Source: Candidatus Bathyarchaeota archaeon
Lineage (GTDB): Archaea > Thermoproteota > Bathyarchaeia > Bathyarchaeales > Bathycorpusculaceae
Direction of reading: 5' to 3'
Length of the DNA stretch: 64,000 bases
Assembly: GCA_963733095.1 (NCBI GenBank)
Contig: CAVTBV010000004.1
Span: forward strand, 1 to 64,000
Shown: positions 24,269 through 49,195 of the stretch, one piece after another
How positions within the stretch are numbered: position 1 is the first letter of the stretch
Layout: each line of letters begins with the position of its first letter
Translations under genes and position numbers: made by a program
Notes under the pieces: model-generated
Told to the model about the DNA's origin: nothing
Databases searched by the model: none
What the model saw: only the letters and a program-made list of their open reading frames with translations

Positions 24269-24442
24269 TAGTTTACCGTCGAATAAATATCAGCTAAGAG
24301 TTTAGATAATAAAAATATTTACTAAAACGTTAACACGACTCCGCCGCGTGGAAAAAAAATTTTTTAGTATAGGAGCTGGCTGCAACAAACAAGATAAGAA
24401 ATTAGCAACACTAATATGGCACAAAACTGCTTATCCATCTTA

Positions 24443-24538
24443 GTTCTTGGGGAGCTGGGAAAATGACCTGGCTGAGAGGACGGCTGTTTGCTGTCGACCC
24501 TTAGGAACCTGAACCAGGTAATACTGGCGGAGGGAAAC
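24443..24538 (+). ncRNA. TPP riboswitch (THI-box)
   Basis: GGGG..P3..CTGAGA..P3a(GACGGC/GCTGTC)..ACCC..ACCTGA.CCAG-GTAATA-CTGG-CGGAGGGAA, directly upstream of thiT. Confidence 0.92.
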
Positions 24539-24542
24539 ATAA

Positions 24543-25091
24543 TTGAACACCCCAAATACAAGTGAATATAAAAACCAAAATTCCTTTAGAAATCCCAAAG
24601 TTTTAGCTGAAACCGCGATTTTTATTGCCTTGGCAACCGCGCTAAGTCTAATTGTTGTGTATACTTTGCCACAGGGTGGATCCATCACTGCTGCATCGAT
24701 GGTTCCGATTTTGTGGTTGGCGCTTAGAAGAGGACCCAAAGTAGGTATAGCCGCAGGAGTTTTGTACGGGTTTATTCAGCTTGGCCTTTTACCCTATGTG
24801 ATTAATCCAGTGCAGTTGTTACTTGATTATCCCTTAGCATTCGGAGTCCTTGGCTTAGCAGGATTATTCCAAAAATATCCTCTTGCTGGTGCAGCTGTTG
24901 GAATTTCTGGAAGATTCATTATGCATTTTGTTGCAGGTGTATTTTACTGGGCACCAATAGAGGCTCCAAACCTAAACCCGTTTGTTTACTCAGCCGTATA
25001 CAACGCAAGCTACATACTCCCAGAACTTGTAATAAGTGGATTCATACTTTATTTGCTGCAGAAGAGTAACGTCCTGCGAGCGTTCATGTAA
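24543..25091 (+). CDS. thiT: ECF thiamine S component ThiT
   Basis: PQGGSIT, RRG.K.G, Q.LLDY.LAF, H...GV.YW, YS..YN.SY. Confidence 0.9.
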   Translation: MNTPNTSEYKNQNSFRNPKVLAETAIFIALATALSLIVVYTLPQGGSITAASMVPILWLALRRGPKVGIAAGVLYGFIQLGLLPYVINPVQLLLDYPLAFGVLGLAGLFQKYPLAGAAVGISGRFIMHFVAGVFYWAPIEAPNLNPFVYSAVYNASYILPELVISGFILYLLQKSNVLRAFM

Positions 25092-26090
25092 TTGGGAAAA
25101 CTTAATGCTAAAGAACTCCAAAAAATGTTGGATTGCATTCGGAAGGATTTTCGAGTTATCGTCCCACCCATGATTGGGTACGATGCAGGAGTACACCTTT
25201 TACATGGCAAGTATGTGGCCGTCGCAACGGATCCATGCACTGGCGTTCCTGAAGAGTGGTTTGGTTGGTTAATGATTAATTATGCTGCTTCGGATGTGGC
25301 TTTGTTTGGAGCTAGACCTGAATTTTGCACCATAACCCTCCTCGGACCGATAGGAACAAAACCTGAAGTCTTCCAAAAAATCATGAAACAAACCTGCAGT
25401 GCCGCCGACGAATTAGGAATAGCTATTGTTCGCGGGCACACAGGTATGTACGGCAGCATCAAAGAACCGCTTGGAGTATGCACAGTTTACGGAATCGTGG
25501 AACCCAAGAAGTTGATTACGCCGGGAAACGCCAAGGCGGGCGATTTGATTCTGTGCACAAAGCCGCTTGGTTTAGAGACAATTACCAACTTCTCGCTGAC
25601 CCAAAAGGAAAAAGCCCGGGAGCTCTTTGGTGCTGATAAACAAGGAGAATTCGAAAAACTGGTCTACTTGCAAAGTTGCGTAAAGGAAGCTTTTGAGCTT
25701 GCAGAAGTAGGTGGGGTCCATGCGATGCATGACGCGACGGAAGGCGGGTTTGTGGCAGCGCTCAATGAGTTGGCCGGGGCTTCCAAGGTTGGTTTTAAGG
25801 TTGAATGGGAAAAATTGCCCCTAACCAACGAGGTCTTTGCCTTGCAGAATCACTTTAAGCTCACTGATGAACAGGTCTTGGCGATGTCTTCAACGGGCAC
25901 TATTTTGGCGGCTATTAAATTAGAAATGCAAGAAAAAGTTAAAGCAGCATTAAACAAAAATGGGCTTTCATCTTGCATCATAGGTGAATTCACTGAAAAA
26001 CAAGAACGCATCTTGATTAAGAAAGGAAAAGATACACCTTTTCCAAGCCTTGCCGACGATCCCTACACACAGATTCTTTCAGGGAAATAG
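25092..26090 (+). CDS. AIR-synthase-related (PurM/ThiL/HypE fold) protein
   Basis: MGKL, G.DAG, TDP, SD...GA.P, GHT, GD..L.TK, MHDATEGG. Confidence 0.8.
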   Translation: MGKLNAKELQKMLDCIRKDFRVIVPPMIGYDAGVHLLHGKYVAVATDPCTGVPEEWFGWLMINYAASDVALFGARPEFCTITLLGPIGTKPEVFQKIMKQTCSAADELGIAIVRGHTGMYGSIKEPLGVCTVYGIVEPKKLITPGNAKAGDLILCTKPLGLETITNFSLTQKEKARELFGADKQGEFEKLVYLQSCVKEAFELAEVGGVHAMHDATEGGFVAALNELAGASKVGFKVEWEKLPLTNEVFALQNHFKLTDEQVLAMSSTGTILAAIKLEMQEKVKAALNKNGLSSCIIGEFTEKQERILIKKGKDTPFPSLADDPYTQILSGK

Positions 26091-44529: not shown

Positions 44530-44841
44530 ATGAAGTTTTTAATCATTCAGAAAATCAAACACAACGTACCCCTGGAGAAATGGGCAAAGCTTCTCCCTCT
44601 GCAATTTAAGTATTTTGAAAACCTCGAAAAAGAAAAAACCCTTGAAGTAACCTACCACCTCATCGGCCAGCAAGGTAGTATGCTTATCGTCAACGTTGAA
44701 TCAGACGAAAAACTCTCCAAAATCATCGGACAAGACCCAATGTTCTTCGATTCCGAAAGAGAAATCTACCCCTTAACAACACGACAAACACACGAAAAAC
44801 AAATCCGAGAACTCTTCAAGCCAGAGCCAGCAGGGTTTTAA
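44530..44841 (+). CDS. Muconolactone delta-isomerase-like protein
   Basis: MKFL, G..LI.NV.S.E.L.....DP.F....EIYPL pattern. Confidence 0.6.
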   Translation: MKFLIIQKIKHNVPLEKWAKLLPLQFKYFENLEKEKTLEVTYHLIGQQGSMLIVNVESDEKLSKIIGQDPMFFDSEREIYPLTTRQTHEKQIRELFKPEPAGF

Positions 44842-44843
44842 CG

Positions 44844-45398
44844 ATGGGTTGCCACGGCGGTTTTAACCTCGATGAAACAACGAGGCGTTCATGGTACAAT
44901 CCAGAAGCAATTCTGCAGGACCTAAAGCGCGGCATGGTGTTTATTGACGTTGGTTGTGGCGATGGCTACTTCAGCATTTTAGCTGCCAAAAAAGTTGGAG
45001 CAAACGGGAAAGTCTACGCTGTGGATACTGATGCTTCGGGGATAGATAAGCTCCAACAAAAAGCCGCTACAGAAGGACTAAAAAGCATCACTACTAAGGT
45101 TGGTAGAGCTGAGGATACTGTTTTCTGCAAACAATGCGCTGATTTCATTTTGTGTAGCATGGATCTGCATGATTTTGATGACCCTGCAAAAGTGCTCCAT
45201 AATGCCAAACAAATGATTAAGCCGTCGGGGGTTCTAGTTGATTTGGACTGGAAGAAACAGGAGATGCCGTTTGGTCCACCCGTTGCCATAAGGTTTAGCG
45301 AAGAAAAAGCCTCAGGTCTCATAGAGTCGGCAGGTTTTAAGGTAGCAGACGTTAAGGATGCTGGACCCCACCACTATATGGTTAGGGCAAAACTGTGA
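44844..45398 (+). CDS. Class I SAM-dependent methyltransferase
   Basis: DVGCGDG, VYAVD, LHD, KPSG, DW, GPP. Confidence 0.88.
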   Translation: MGCHGGFNLDETTRRSWYNPEAILQDLKRGMVFIDVGCGDGYFSILAAKKVGANGKVYAVDTDASGIDKLQQKAATEGLKSITTKVGRAEDTVFCKQCADFILCSMDLHDFDDPAKVLHNAKQMIKPSGVLVDLDWKKQEMPFGPPVAIRFSEEKASGLIESAGFKVADVKDAGPHHYMVRAKL

Positions 45399-45404
45399 TT
45401 TGTC

Positions 45405-46031
45405 CTATTCAGCGTGAGCGTAGAGTTCAAGCAAATCATGGTTAAACCGTTCAGGCTCATCTTTGTAGGCCGAGTGGTTTGCGCCATCGTAGACTATAAG
45501 TTTTGCATTTGGCAGCTTATCGGCTAAGGTACGCATGTCTTCGCCTCCGATGATGTTATCTTGAGAACCCCAGATTATGGTTGTGGAAAACGTGAATTGG
45601 CTAAACTTTTGCACTAAGTCTGGTTCAAGAGCGCGTGCAGGAGCAACTAAAAGTAAACCCTTAACTGGAAACTGGATAGCGTACCGCATGGCCATGTTGC
45701 CGCCTATGCTGGCGCCGACAAGTACCGGGTCCGCTTCCCCAAAAACGGTTTTGACCGCTTCATTTGCGAATGTAATGTTTTTTTCTGGAGAACGAGTCTT
45801 AGGTTGACATTGGCTTTTCATGCCATAAGGCATGTCTAAAGCCAAAAAAGGCACCCGCTTTCTCATAAGTAGATCAGTCACCCCAATCCGCTGCCAAATG
45901 TCGGATGTGTACGATAAACCGTGGAAAAAAACGATGGGAACACCAGGCGCCGTATAGTATAAGGCTGGGCACTTGTGGCCTGCAACGTTTAATGTTCTCT
46001 CCAACCAAATCTCCCTGTTTCCTATGTGCAA
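45405..46031 (-). CDS. Alpha/beta hydrolase (ABHD14-like)
   Basis: HG, GASIGG, WGSQD, GANH. Confidence 0.85.
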   Translation of the reverse strand: MHIGNREIWLERTLNVAGHKCPALYYTAPGVPIVFFHGLSYTSDIWQRIGVTDLLMRKRVPFLALDMPYGMKSQCQPKTRSPEKNITFANEAVKTVFGEADPVLVGASIGGNMAMRYAIQFPVKGLLLVAPARALEPDLVQKFSQFTFSTTIIWGSQDNIIGGEDMRTLADKLPNAKLIVYDGANHSAYKDEPERFNHDLLELYAHAE

Positions 46032-46102: not shown

Positions 46103-46579
46103 TTGACAGTTAAAGTCGGCGATAAAGCGCCTGATTTCACACTTCCCTCTCAAATGGGCGATAACGTGACGCTTTCGGAGTTTTTGGGCAAAAAAAACGT
46201 AATTTTATATTTTTATCCAAAAGATGAAACGCCAGGTTGCACAAAAGAAGCCTGCACATTCAGAGATAACTATGAACAGCTAACAAGTTTGGGTGCGGAA
46301 GTGCTCGGCGTAAGTGGGCAGAGCGTAGACTCTCACAATTCATTCGCAACACACTACGGATTACCATTCCTGCTTCTAGCCGATGTAGACAACAAGGTAC
46401 GCGAGCTTTATGGAGTGCCTTCAACCATGGGGTTTCTTCCCGGCAGAGTTACCTACATCATTGACAAGAAGGGTATTGTCCGCCACATTTTCAATTCCCA
46501 AAGCCAAGCGCAGCGGCACGTTGAAGAAGCCAAGAAAACGCTGATAGAAATAGAGAAAGAAGAGCAAGCTACCCCATAG
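46103..46579 (+). CDS. bcp: Peroxiredoxin (BCP/PrxQ)
   Basis: [33 protein letters not shown]. Confidence 0.92.
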
Positions 46580-46589
46580 ATGGCGAACA

Positions 46590-47828
46590 ATGATGCTCAA
46601 CATTTACAACACGTTAACGAGGAAAACCGAACAGTTCCAACCAGCAGAAGACATGCTGATTAAAATGTACACATGTGGACCCTCAACCTACCAACCTGCC
46701 CACATCGGAAACTACCGCACTTTTCTCTTCGAAGACATCTTTCAACGTTACCTCGAATACTTAGGGTACAAAGTAACTCGACTGATGACCCTAACCGACG
46801 TAGAAGACAAGGCGATTGAGCAAGCTAAAAAAGAAAACATAACCGTTGAAGAGTTAACACGTAAAAACGAAGCAGTTTTCTTCAAGGATTTCGAAGCTTT
46901 GAAAATTAAAAAGCCCGATTACCCAGTGAGGGCTTCAACAGCGGTAGACCAAGCAGCAAAACTAATCACACAATTAGTCGATAAAGGCTATGCCTACTGG
47001 AACACCTACAACGGCGCCCAAAACGTCTATTTTGACCCCAAAAAATTCAAGGGGTTCGGCAAACTTTCCAATTTAGACATGAGTAAGTGGCCCAAAAAGA
47101 AACGCCGCTTCCACAAAGACACCTATCCGGGAACACCTTGGAACCTTGGGGACTTTGTGCTTTGGCACGGATGCGAGGAACAGGGATTCTGTTACCAAAC
47201 GCCGATTGGCAATGGTCGACCCGCATGGAATATTCAAGATGCATCCATCATAACTAAACATCTGGGCTTCACCGTTGATGTTGGATGTGGCGGAATCGAC
47301 AATTTAGTCAGGCATCATGACTACACTATTGCTGTTATGGAAGCGGTTTCGGGTAAGCATTCCTCAAGGTACTGGCTGCACGGCGCCCACCTGTTTGTCG
47401 ATAGCAAAAAGATGTCTAAAAGTAAAGGCAACGTGTACTACCCAAACGACCTCCTAGCCAAAGGTTTCAGCGCCGAACAGCTAAGGTTCTTCCTTATCTA
47501 CGCACCATATCGGAAAAAACTAAACTTCACCTTTGAAAAGTTGAAAAAGACAAGTCAAAGGCTGGATTCATTTAAAGGCATGGTTTCGGAGTTGGAGAAA
47601 ACAAAGTCGACGAGCCAAACTGAAAAACAAGTACGCCTCACAAGCAAAATTACCGTCGATTTTGAAGAGCACATGAACAACGATTTGGACGTAAAATCTG
47701 CATTCGATAGCCTGTATGAAACAACAAATCAACTTTATGAGATGCGGGAGTCGTTGAGTTCAAAAGATGTAAAAAATGTGTTGAGTAATTTGCACAGGGT
47801 TGATGGAGTGCTTCAATGTATTCTTTAG
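46590..47828 (+). CDS. Cysteinyl-tRNA synthetase paralog (altered active site, no anticodon-binding domain)
   Basis: CGP..Y...HIGN, TDVEDK, DFVLW, GRPAWNIQD, GG.D....HH, KMSKS, MNNDL; ends at 412 aa. Confidence 0.85.
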   Translation: MMLNIYNTLTRKTEQFQPAEDMLIKMYTCGPSTYQPAHIGNYRTFLFEDIFQRYLEYLGYKVTRLMTLTDVEDKAIEQAKKENITVEELTRKNEAVFFKDFEALKIKKPDYPVRASTAVDQAAKLITQLVDKGYAYWNTYNGAQNVYFDPKKFKGFGKLSNLDMSKWPKKKRRFHKDTYPGTPWNLGDFVLWHGCEEQGFCYQTPIGNGRPAWNIQDASIITKHLGFTVDVGCGGIDNLVRHHDYTIAVMEAVSGKHSSRYWLHGAHLFVDSKKMSKSKGNVYYPNDLLAKGFSAEQLRFFLIYAPYRKKLNFTFEKLKKTSQRLDSFKGMVSELEKTKSTSQTEKQVRLTSKITVDFEEHMNNDLDVKSAFDSLYETTNQLYEMRESLSSKDVKNVLSNLHRVDGVLQCIL

Positions 47829-48073
47829 ACGAGTTCGCCTACAAGCTTTACTCTTGTGAACGTTTCTTCGCGGTGCGGGGCCATCTCAAGTTCTTCAGTT
47901 AAGTCTTTGCCTGCATCATGCATGCCCATATGGTCGCCTTCCATCCAAAAACTGCTGTCCGTGACCTCATAGACTTTGCCTTGATAGGCTATATAGGCTG
48001 GTTTACCGTTTTTTCCATTATTTTCCTGTAGTTGTTGGCGCGTTATCTTTTTTTGTTCTGCCAAAAAATTCAC
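47825..48073 (-). CDS. Cytochrome b5-like heme/steroid-binding protein
   Basis: NGKNG.PAYIA..GKVY.VT.S..W..G.H...H.AG.DLT..L..APH. Confidence 0.88.
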   Translation of the reverse strand: MNFLAEQKKITRQQLQENNGKNGKPAYIAYQGKVYEVTDSSFWMEGDHMGMHDAGKDLTEELEMAPHREETFTRVKLVGELV

Positions 48074-48127: not shown

Positions 48128-49195
48128 TCAGTTTTTTATGATGGGACCAGATGATGCTTGATAAGCCGCGTTTATGTTGATCCTGCCAAGGTTTGTTTTG
48201 CTGTTTATGTCGATGTTGCTAAGAGAAGGGTAGTTGTCTGATTGGATTGGGGATTGTTTGCCTGAAAAATGCTGCAAGTCAGCGTTTATGCTTCCCAACT
48301 TTGTTTGTGAAATGAGTTGGGCTCCAACATCACCGTCGATGACTAACCCGACGTTTACTGAACCTAAGTCCGTAACTGCGTTGATTTGCAGTTTTCCCTG
48401 AAATGTTTTAGTTTGGGTTATATCCATGGTCACTGAGCCAGCGTTTGTTTTTAGAGCAAAGGTGTTGTTGCCTTCAACGTTGATTTGGCTCATTCGGAGA
48501 TCTATATTTCCCGCTTGGGTTCTAAGTGTCACGTTCCCCGCGATGGTGATGTTTTGCAGGTTTGCGCCTACAGTTCCAGCTGTCGATTGCAGGTTGAGGT
48601 TCTCAAAGGTTGAAGGTTTATCGGCTGTTAAGCTGACTTGCCCCGCTTGTGAGGTCACGTTGAGGTTTAGGGTTAGGGCGGTGTTAAGGTAGATGTTACA
48701 GTTAGCGTTAAGTCTTGAAAAAGCAGTAGATTCCTTGATCTTCGCAGTTATTGTTAACTCGTTGCCTACTGTATCATTGTAGAAGCTAACTTGTATTGGA
48801 CTATCACCGCTGCCAAAAACAGTTTTTGAAGCTGTCCCATCGAGCGTAATCAGGAAATTATCGTTGGAAGCATTTTGGATAAAAACATTTACTCTAAGCC
48901 CCTCCGTTTGGACGTTGAGATTTAACTTGTTAATATCAGAGGTTTTGTCTTGGTATGTTTGCCCAAAAGTTACTGTTGAGAACGGTGCAGCCAGTAAGGC
49001 AGCCATGATTATGCCTCCAACTAAGATGGCAATTAACACTATGGCTCCAATTATTATTGGGTCATTTCTGATTGGTTTCATCGGGGTTAGCGGTGGCGAA
49101 GAAGCATAAGTGGCTGGTTCGACTGGGGTTCCGCATCTGTTGCAGAAATGCGCGTCCTCATCAAGTTTTGTTCCGCATCTTCTGCAATAAGGCAC
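48128..49195 (-). CDS. Zinc-ribbon + TM + beta-strand repeat (DUF4097-like) protein
   Basis: YC..CG......FC..CG, one TM, repeated T..G.V/I motifs. Confidence 0.75.
   Translation of the reverse strand: MPYCRRCGTKLDEDAHFCNRCGTPVEPATYASSPPLTPMKPIRNDPIIIGAIVLIAILVGGIIMAALLAAPFSTVTFGQTYQDKTSDINKLNLNVQTEGLRVNVFIQNASNDNFLITLDGTASKTVFGSGDSPIQVSFYNDTVGNELTITAKIKESTAFSRLNANCNIYLNTALTLNLNVTSQAGQVSLTADKPSTFENLNLQSTAGTVGANLQNITIAGNVTLRTQAGNIDLRMSQINVEGNNTFALKTNAGSVTMDITQTKTFQGKLQINAVTDLGSVNVGLVIDGDVGAQLISQTKLGSINADLQHFSGKQSPIQSDNYPSLSNIDINSKTNLGRININAAYQASSGPIIKN

Follow-up and report, generated by a model that had tools for sequence, protein, structure and literature searches.

A conserved cysteinyl-tRNA synthetase paralog of Bathyarchaeia with a rebuilt active site and no anticodon-binding domain

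The window analysed in this study is a stretch of 64,000 nucleotides from a soil archaeon, Candidatus Bathyarchaeota archaeon (assembly GCA_963733095.1, contig CAVTBV010000004.1, positions 1 to 64,000). Directly behind a gene for a Bcp/PrxQ-type peroxiredoxin (bcp), it encodes a paralog of cysteinyl-tRNA synthetase (CysRS) that has kept the motifs of the ATP site, has lost the anticodon-binding domain at its C-terminus and carries an amino acid pocket whose substitutions are invariant throughout a large family. A separate canonical CysRS gene (cysS) resides elsewhere in the same genome. The paralog might be an anticodon-independent, ATP-dependent cysteine ligase with a probably anionic acceptor, a reading that leads the field of candidates and that we hold tentatively. 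Papers cited by PMC number are drawn on in excerpt.

Results

Scored against the cysS model TIGR00435, the paralog reaches 318.6 bits (320.8 in the genome search), which is below the cut-off of 340, and it spans model positions 1-399 of 466. It is built from a Rossmann catalytic domain, a connective peptide (CP) domain, a stem-contact fold and a helical bundle. The Pfam models CysS_C and DALR_2 gave no match in the paralog even at E≤10, whereas the canonical CysRS of the same genome contains both, with CysS_C at residues 423-470. In alignments, the paralogs end with the helical bundle and the canonical enzymes run approximately 60 residues further. Judged by these comparisons, the anticodon-binding domain at the C-terminus is absent from the paralog. 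An AlphaFold2 model computed from 56 family sequences is confident, with a predicted local distance difference test score (pLDDT) of 92.5. Its best folds in the PDB are CysRS, with template modelling (TM) scores of 0.84-0.89 (8qhp, 0.89), followed by MshC, the L-cysteine:GlcN-Ins ligase of mycothiol synthesis (TM 0.82-0.84). The ESM Atlas returned as leads only short CysRS-like and MshC clusters. Five longer proteins with 33-38% identity were considered as fused members of the family and rejected, as none looks like one: P0271 has the canonical WHIEC and PHHENE motifs, and the other four contain Pfam CysS_C and DALR_2.

Conservation was counted over 85 full-length coding sequences of the family, 83 of them distinct, and residue equivalences were taken from an alignment to E. 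coli CysRS (1li5; C28=C29, C209=D217, H234=H242, E238=T246). On the ATP side, the HIGH-type signature in the form HIGN, the GGxD ribose-binding motif and the KMSKS loop are all retained (Table 1), so that by its motifs the ATP site is intact. HIGN as a mark of a defect was rejected because most of the nearest canonical CysRS representatives have the same form. On the amino acid side, the pocket has been rebuilt. Compared with WHIEC, the WNIQD motif of the family retains the Trp, exchanges His for Asn and Glu for Gln, and has Asp217 in place of the zinc ligand C209. In RHHDYT, the counterpart of PHHENE, H242 corresponds to ligand H234 and T246 to the former ligand E238. The zinc ligands of E. 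coli CysRS are C28, C209, H234 and E238 (PMC7563103), and two of the four are thus replaced in the paralog (C209 by D217, E238 by T246). Further residues invariant in 83/83 are T69, W213, N214, Q216, G235 and D237. The same substitutions recur invariantly in all 83 distinct sequences and therefore are not a matter of chance. The position equivalent to E238 varies across the family, with Thr in 62 members, Asn in 11, Ile in four, Val in three, Ala in two and Ser in one.

An initial annotation of the window had described a CysRS paralog with intact HIGN and KMSKS, the two altered motifs, the replacement of two zinc ligands and the missing anticodon domain, encoded 10 bp behind bcp and convergent to a cytochrome b5-like gene. 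This description is borne out in every part, including the open reading frame (ORF) coordinates, and the substitutions are a property of the whole family. Its view of an undescribed enzyme agrees with scores below the NCBIfam cut-offs for both cysS and MshC. The two checks by which it could have been overturned, a paralog that is the sole Cys-tRNA route and substitutions that homologs do not share, left it standing.

Replacement of C209 by Asp preserves a metal-ligating side chain, and the predicted metal site of the paralog would consist of Cys29, Asp217 and His242, compared to Cys, Cys and His in MshC. The latter binds zinc via C43, C231 and H256 plus the substrate thiol, i.e. with three protein ligands, and holds the alpha-amino group of cysteine by T46, T83 and G44 (PMC9736012). 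The counterparts of these residues in the paralog, C29, D217, H242, S32, T69 and G30, are all six invariant. When the active-site segment of 51 amino acids was searched alone against the PDB, MshC was the top match (31.4 bits against 28.8); it reads PHHEYS where the paralog reads RHHDYT. Because the pocket resembles the three-ligand site of MshC and because Thr69 and Trp213 are retained, cysteine would be the most likely amino acid and the simplest guess. Asn214, Gln216, Arg241 and Tyr245 are family-specific and invariant and render the pocket less acidic; a changed metal or a changed substrate is therefore conceivable. A natural Asp at the C209 position was also seen outside the family, in P0161, P0210 and P0270. 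These are full-length CysRS-like proteins of 455-462 amino acids with an anticodon domain, which read GWHIED and retain the Glu ligand.

A second family-specific element lies in the CP domain. A basic loop with the nearly invariant pattern WP-KKK-RR-F-H stands in for the CP1 loop of CysRS. W167, P168, H175, D177 and Y179 are invariant, and R172 and R173 are present in 81/83 and 80/83 members, respectively. The CP1 loop of CysRS reads the acceptor stem's first base pair (1:72), and it is altered in CysRS*, a CysRS copy of Desulfobacterales (PMC5389517). The basic character extends to the whole protein: in nine genomes, the isoelectric points (pI) of the paralogs are 8.3-9.6 versus 5.9-6.7 for the canonical CysRS in seven of these nine. 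No tRNA gene is linked to the paralog: aragorn gave a call of any kind in only 5/90 loci, none of them for Cys or selenocysteine (Sec).

The window genome (G000, 95% complete) encodes its canonical cysS on contig C14 (507.8 bits). A canonical copy was found in 16/16 carrier genomes checked, namely 11 intact carriers from a sample of the class, in which the second match is of the canonical type, and five further carriers including both Asgard archaea, in which cysS scores above the cut-off. SepRS, SepCysS, SepSecS and SelD gave no match above cut-off in the window genome. This genome has one tRNA-Cys species (GCA, G37, U73) in two identical copies and no tRNA-Sec call. The tRNA-Cys copies are located at C10:9925-9998 and C11:2-75; one is at a contig edge, and they may be a single locus split by assembly. 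The paralog is not the Cys-tRNA route of the genome. In E. coli CysRS, the exchanges C209D and C28D strongly lower translation activity while persulfide synthesis is unchanged (PMC5660078, PMC10655014; for C209D and translation also PMC7563103). As these exchanges cripple the E. coli enzyme in translation, the paralog is presumably not an efficient Cys-tRNA synthetase.

In a large protein database, the family comprises more than 120 clusters of approximately 411 amino acids with 73-91% identity, and a search of representative proteins added members that have the same motifs at identities as low as 43-49%. NCBI names them only as 'class I tRNA ligase family protein'. A signature scan over one genome per prokaryotic species gave at least 593 matches, of which at least 577 encode a relative; the carriers are mostly soil and peat Bathyarchaeia and some Asgard archaea. 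By record title, the best 80 matches are 72 metagenome-assembled genomes (MAGs) of Bathyarchaeota or Bathyarchaeia, three from an 'uncultured archaeon', two from Asgard archaea (Freyarchaeota, Hodarchaeota), one labelled Methanocella and two labelled Acidobacteriota. The isolate names of many Bathyarchaeia MAGs among these 80 indicate peat or mire (palsa, bog, fen, SPRUCE). In the records labelled Ca. Acidoferrum (L071), Ca. Sulfotelmatobacter (L114) and Methanocella (L100), the paralog is surrounded by the gene block typical of Bathyarchaeia, and these records are therefore probably mis-binned. A divergent member on a metagenome contig (L141:2236-3477) has 49% identity and reads WNVQD and RHHDYN; its neighbours look bacterial (S30AE/HPF-CSD, CorC/CNNM, MacB/FtsX, GH3), and none is informative. 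With a divergent family member as lead, a metagenome scan returned generic patterns, and 138/591 stretches encoded relatives. The Asp-type motif occurred in 4/80 retained loci (L141-L144), of which L142 and L143 repeat the known block and L144 is a 1.5-kb contig.

Selection on the family was estimated by the Nei-Gojobori method from the 48 pairs with 0.05<dS<1.5 among 57 pairs of more than 80% identity. The median ratio of nonsynonymous to synonymous substitution rates (dN/dS) is 0.115 (range 0.04-0.20), and the family is under purifying selection. In a quick LG+G4 tree of 86 CysRS-like sequences, calculated without bootstrap and without MshC sequences, the family groups as one clade (SH-aLRT 99) on a stem of 0.38, and this clade lies outside that of the canonical Bathyarchaeia enzymes. 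Close to its base, a few further short CysRS-like representatives branch off. Canonical zinc ligands are also found in short representatives (P0129, P0136, P0142, P0162, P0177, P0200), and Bathyarchaeia of another family (f29) possess a different second short CysRS-like ORF of 410-456 amino acids that is 33-36% identical to the window paralog (Table 1). CysRS copies without an anticodon domain thus seem to have arisen more than once.

The distribution of the gene is patchy. Sampling 201 genomes from the class gave 12 paralog-level matches, 11 intact copies and one pseudogene, and sampling 401 genomes from the phylum gave nine, all in three Bathyarchaeia genera. The gene is accessory and not essential. 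The pseudogene (G175:C14:55410-56638; L017/L046), from the same genus as the window, has seven in-frame stops (4 TGA, 2 TAG, 1 TAA) and is still placed between bcp and the cytochrome b5-like gene. Among genomes of the window's genus, identity is 64-73% for the paralog and 79-89% for the canonical CysRS, so that the paralog is the faster of the two to diverge. Between Bathyarchaeia families the order is reversed, with 48-57% identity for the paralog and 38-49% for the canonical CysRS (G000, G038, G187, G193 and G157 compared with G078, G199, G160 and G007; L001, L127-L134). Canonical cysS types differ between these families, HIGN versus HIGH/HLGH, and the Asgard copies of the paralog are 56-62% identical to that of the window. 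The greater likeness of the paralogs across families, together with the Asgard copies, hints at lateral transfer of one or both genes, in that the paralog spread, canonical CysRS types were replaced or both happened.

Around the window paralog, the gap to bcp measures 10 bp (46580-46589), or 13 bp if the second ATG, at which the homologs begin, is the start. The paralog and the cytochrome b5-like gene overlap tail-to-tail by 4 nt. Neighbourhoods were compared in 91 loci, including two pairs that are the same record twice. The block order recurs in most of them, with bcp directly upstream on the same strand in 70/91 and the cytochrome b5-like gene as convergent downstream neighbour in 62/91. 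The short distance of 8-18 bp between bcp and the paralog in 54/67 measured loci makes co-transcription plausible, and in the main Bathyarchaeia clade the two genes are, from their spacing, probably co-transcribed. All bcp-linked members fall into one clade of 74 rows in the family tree (SH-aLRT 96, minimum of eight state changes), which indicates that the association is essentially one inherited event. In other clades the neighbours include a Y-family DNA polymerase (five loci), carA, a DUF2070 membrane protein, an M48 peptidase, an aldolase with phosphofructokinase and a LonB-like (archaeal Lon) protease. The polymerase, Dpo4/DinB-like and on the same strand, follows the paralog in L041-L045 (G199, G148, G090, G160 and G007, from two other Bathyarchaeia families) with a spacing from a 29-bp overlap to a 19-bp gap, and no bcp precedes the paralog there. 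Of two further genomes of the window genus, G102 has bcp and the cytochrome b5-like gene adjacent with the paralog cleanly absent, and G094 is without all three.

Elsewhere in the window, a thiamine pyrophosphate (TPP) riboswitch was found at 24438-24552 on the plus strand (56.3 bits, above the Rfam gathering score). It is located upstream of an AIR-synthase/ThiL-like ORF at approximately 25098-25910, which is also a weak match to the selD model (93 bits, below cut-off).

Table 1. Positions of the paralog, its motifs and its neighbours in the window, and of short CysRS-like ORFs in other genomes.
Feature	Position	Strand	Remark
CysRS-derived paralog, 412 aa	46590..47828	+	ORF list; Pfam tRNA-synt_1e 256 bits
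Cys29 (counterparts: zinc ligand C28 in E. coli CysRS, C43 in MshC)	46674..46676	+	invariant 83/83
HIGN, HIGH-type ATP-binding signature	46701..46712	+	H38, G40, N41 invariant 83/83
Basic loop KWPKKKRRFHKDTYPG of the CP domain, specific to the family	47085..47132	+	aligned to CysRS CP1 loop
WNIQD in place of WHIEC	47226..47240	+	W, N, Q, D invariant 83/83
GGIDNLVRHHDYT	47289..47327	+	GGxD ribose-binding motif retained, then RHHDYT for PHHENE
RHHDYT	47310..47327	+	R241, H242, H243, D244, Y245 invariant 83/83; position 246 variable
KMSKS loop	47409..47423	+	K274, M275, S276, K277 invariant 83/83; S278 in 79/83
Bcp/PrxQ-type peroxiredoxin (CxxxxC)	46103..46579	+	Pfam AhpC-TSA 138 bits
Cytochrome b5-like small protein, 82 aa	47825..48073	-	Pfam Cyt-b5 E 1.5e-8
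MIase/YCII-like 103 aa (+), S-adenosylmethionine (SAM) methyltransferase 184 aa (+), alpha/beta hydrolase 208 aa (-)	44530..46031		upstream remainder of conserved block
Zinc-ribbon membrane protein	48128..49195	-	downstream member of conserved block
f29 short CysRS-like ORF	G111:C12:21317-22408		
f29 short CysRS-like ORF	G128:C79:6198-7301		
f29 short CysRS-like ORF	G134:C15:12741-13850		
f29 short CysRS-like ORF	G158:C2:100745-101842		
f29 short CysRS-like ORF	G182:C7:92929-94053		
f29 short CysRS-like ORF	G200:C1:125309-126451		

Discussion

The data show the fold, the conserved motifs and a separate canonical CysRS, and on this basis we propose how the paralog may work. ATP would be bound through HIGN, GGxD and KMSKS. 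L-cysteine, or a very close thiol analogue, would be held at the three-residue metal site of the MshC type (Cys29, Asp217, His242), where Thr69 and Trp213 would bring the amino acid into position. An aminoacyl adenylate would then be formed, and the aminoacyl group would be passed to an acceptor that is not selected via a tRNA anticodon. That this acceptor is anionic is suggested by the basic pI and by the invariant basic loop at the CP1 site. For the main Bathyarchaeia clade, the probable co-transcription with bcp points to a function in the chemistry of thiols or of oxidative stress. Ligation of cysteine to such an acceptor is the explanation that we rank first, and we offer it as tentative.

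Several observations weigh against this explanation. With Asp in place of C209 and with the invariant N214, Q216, R241 and Y245, the site might bind another metal or none at all, or accept another amino acid. The likeness to the MshC motif may be a convergence, as the tree was calculated without MshC. MshA, MshB and MshD gave no match above cut-off in the window genome (95% complete), and neither an acceptor nor a partner pathway was found. The genomic context is conserved in one clade only; in the others, the neighbours include carA, glycolytic genes and a Y-family polymerase. Since G102 maintains bcp and the cytochrome b5-like gene without the paralog, the peroxiredoxin does not depend on it. 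The link to bcp thus is a hint of a redox role and not proof of an obligate system. Finally, the basic pI and the basic CP1 loop suit an RNA substrate at least equally well, and the stem-contact fold and the helical bundle have been retained.

The latter points lead to the explanation that we rank second and regard as possible, if unlikely: the paralog may still be RNA-dependent, either like CysRS*, as an aminoacyl-tRNA synthetase that works independently of the anticodon, or like GluQRS/YadB, as an enzyme that modifies RNA. A tRNA or some other RNA would then be gripped at its acceptor end by the rebuilt basic CP1 loop. Apart from the retained folds and the contrast in pI to most canonical copies, this is favoured by the invariant loop at the very site where CysRS reads base pair 1:72, and by divergent lineages in which the paralog stands alone, with no biosynthetic genes beside it. 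A further point in favour is an engineered CysRS without anticodon domain which, equipped with the CysRS* CP1 motif, cysteinylated a dedicated tRNA; native CysRS* had no activity in E. coli (PMC5389517). However, no tRNA gene is linked to the paralog, the window genome has one tRNA-Cys species and no tRNA-Sec call, and SepSecS and SelD are not above cut-off there. Moreover, the C209D exchange strongly cuts the translation activity of E. coli CysRS, and MshC consists of the same domains and yet uses no tRNA. The independence from tRNA that the initial annotation had assumed is a conjecture, and one weakened by the charge of the protein and of its loop.

The initial annotation had proposed a tRNA-independent ligase in thiol repair whose substrate would be non-standard, for example cysteine sulfinate, cysteate or homocysteine, and which might activate oxidised cysteine together with the peroxiredoxin. 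Sulfiredoxin is a precedent for the activation of a sulfinate by ATP. The pocket has lost two acidic residues and gained an Arg (E208 to Q, E238 lost, P233 to R241), Y245 is invariant, and bcp precedes the paralog in the majority of loci. We nevertheless consider this reading improbable. The changes to Tyr and Ser/Thr are common to MshC, which uses plain cysteine and binds it together with zinc through three protein ligands (PMC9736012). The E238 position is variable in the family and Ser in MshC, and Asp in place of C209 also occurs in P0161, P0210 and P0270. C29, T69 and W213 are intact. The bcp link has a single origin and is absent from other clades, and G102 retains bcp without the paralog. 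The proposed peroxiredoxin operon accordingly stands for the one clade in which the genes are linked and fails as a trait of the family. Overall, the paralog, its domain loss and its conserved substitutions have held up, and the substrate, the tRNA independence and a family-wide operon have been weakened or have found no support.

Even less probable is a dedicated cysteine persulfide synthase, which would represent the pyridoxal phosphate (PLP)-dependent cysteine persulfide synthase (CPERS) side activity of CysRS split off as an enzyme of its own, producing antioxidant persulfides beside the peroxiredoxin. CPERS is ATP-independent, and the invariant ATP-site residues of the paralog would be superfluous if its activity were ATP-free. 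In favour of such a role, the E. coli C28D and C209D variants lose translation and keep persulfide synthesis (PMC5660078, PMC10655014), the peroxiredoxin gene adjoins the paralog, and the equivalents of three PLP lysines (Akaike 2017), K73, K266 and K269, are invariant. These three, however, are general CysRS residues. The equivalent of the fourth, K76, is Lys in 0/83 members (Ala in 42, Thr in eight, Glu in seven, others), which weakens this explanation, as K76A markedly lowers CPERS (passages of PMC5660078 or PMC10655014). A non-catalytic remnant or regulatory pseudo-enzyme would fit the patchy, accessory distribution, the decayed G175 copy with its seven stops and the clean loss in G102, and is hardly credible in view of a dN/dS of about 0.115, catalytic motifs invariant in 83/83 and a signature retained at 43-91% identity in at least 577 genomes.

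Taking the cysteine ligase one step further, it might belong to a cysteinylation system new to archaea. Such a system could supply the peroxiredoxins of oxygen-exposed soil Bathyarchaeia with a new cysteine-bearing low-molecular-weight thiol, or it could attach cysteine to RNA or an acidic protein with the help of the basic CP1 loop; so specific a role we judge rather unlikely. If true, the class I synthetase fold would in both cases have gained, with its Cys/Asp/His/Tyr site, a new way of selecting the amino acid. The family is large (at least 577 species-level genomes), under purifying selection and endowed with an invariant rebuilt active site, and its hosts are archaea that dominate many soils and peats and are poorly characterised, thiol and redox biochemistry included. 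The substrate pair of the paralog would reveal a new archaeal thiol cofactor, a new modification of RNA or protein, or a natural change in metal-based amino acid selection. Truncated synthetase paralogs have repeatedly been the key to unexpected chemistry, as in mycothiol synthesis, queuosine glutamylation and UGA recoding.

GluQRS/YadB and other truncated class I synthetase paralogs (listed in Table 1 of PMC9437257) combine a catalytic core without anticodon-binding domain with a new acceptor. GluQRS/YadB differs from the paralog in its parent synthetase, which in the case of the paralog is CysRS. Our literature searches retrieved no description of the family; the consulted parts of PMC9437257 list CysRS* and MshC as the only CysRS paralogs, and those of PMC8762117 and PMC2922099 do not mention it. 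A Zur-type low-zinc backup CysRS was also considered and rejected: the proteobacterial paralogs described in excerpts of PMC2770081 retain their zinc residues, and nothing here suggests zinc regulation. CysRS* of Desulfobacterales (Mukai et al. 2017, PMC5389517) likewise is a second CysRS copy without anticodon-binding domain and with an altered CP1 motif. It is encoded beside selC* and selB*, whereas the paralog has no tRNA or selB linkage and the window genome no Sec machinery above cut-off.

Canonical CysRS (TIGR00435; 1li5, 1u0b, 8qhp) is the best overall match of the paralog (220 bits, TM 0.89). Both have the catalytic motifs and the equivalents of Cys28, Thr68, Trp205 and His234 in common. 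In contrast to the canonical enzyme, the paralog scores below the cut-off, lacks CysS_C and a scoring DALR_2, carries Asp for C209 and does not conserve E238. Its clade stands apart on a long stem, and in all 16 carrier genomes checked a true cysS is encoded alongside.

The closest functional parallel appears to be MshC (TIGR03447; 3c8z, 8hfm). Both proteins are derived from CysRS, measure approximately 410 amino acids, lack the anticodon-binding domain and retain HIGH-type and KMSKS motifs. In both, the fourth zinc ligand Glu has given way to a small hydroxyl residue after a Tyr, in HHEYS of MshC and HHDYT of the paralog. The folds match with TM scores of 0.82-0.84 (3c8z, 0.82) at 22-23% identity in Foldseek structural alignments. 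With 184.1 bits against a cut-off of 485.1 in the MshC model, the paralog is not MshC. The second Cys ligand of MshC is Asp in the paralog; WNIQD, Arg241 and the basic CP loop are confined to the paralog family; and the hosts are archaea compared to actinobacteria. The family would thus be an undescribed group of truncated synthetase paralogs outside MshC, canonical CysRS and CysRS*, and in its working it is probably most like MshC, with which it has the architecture and probably the ligand logic in common.

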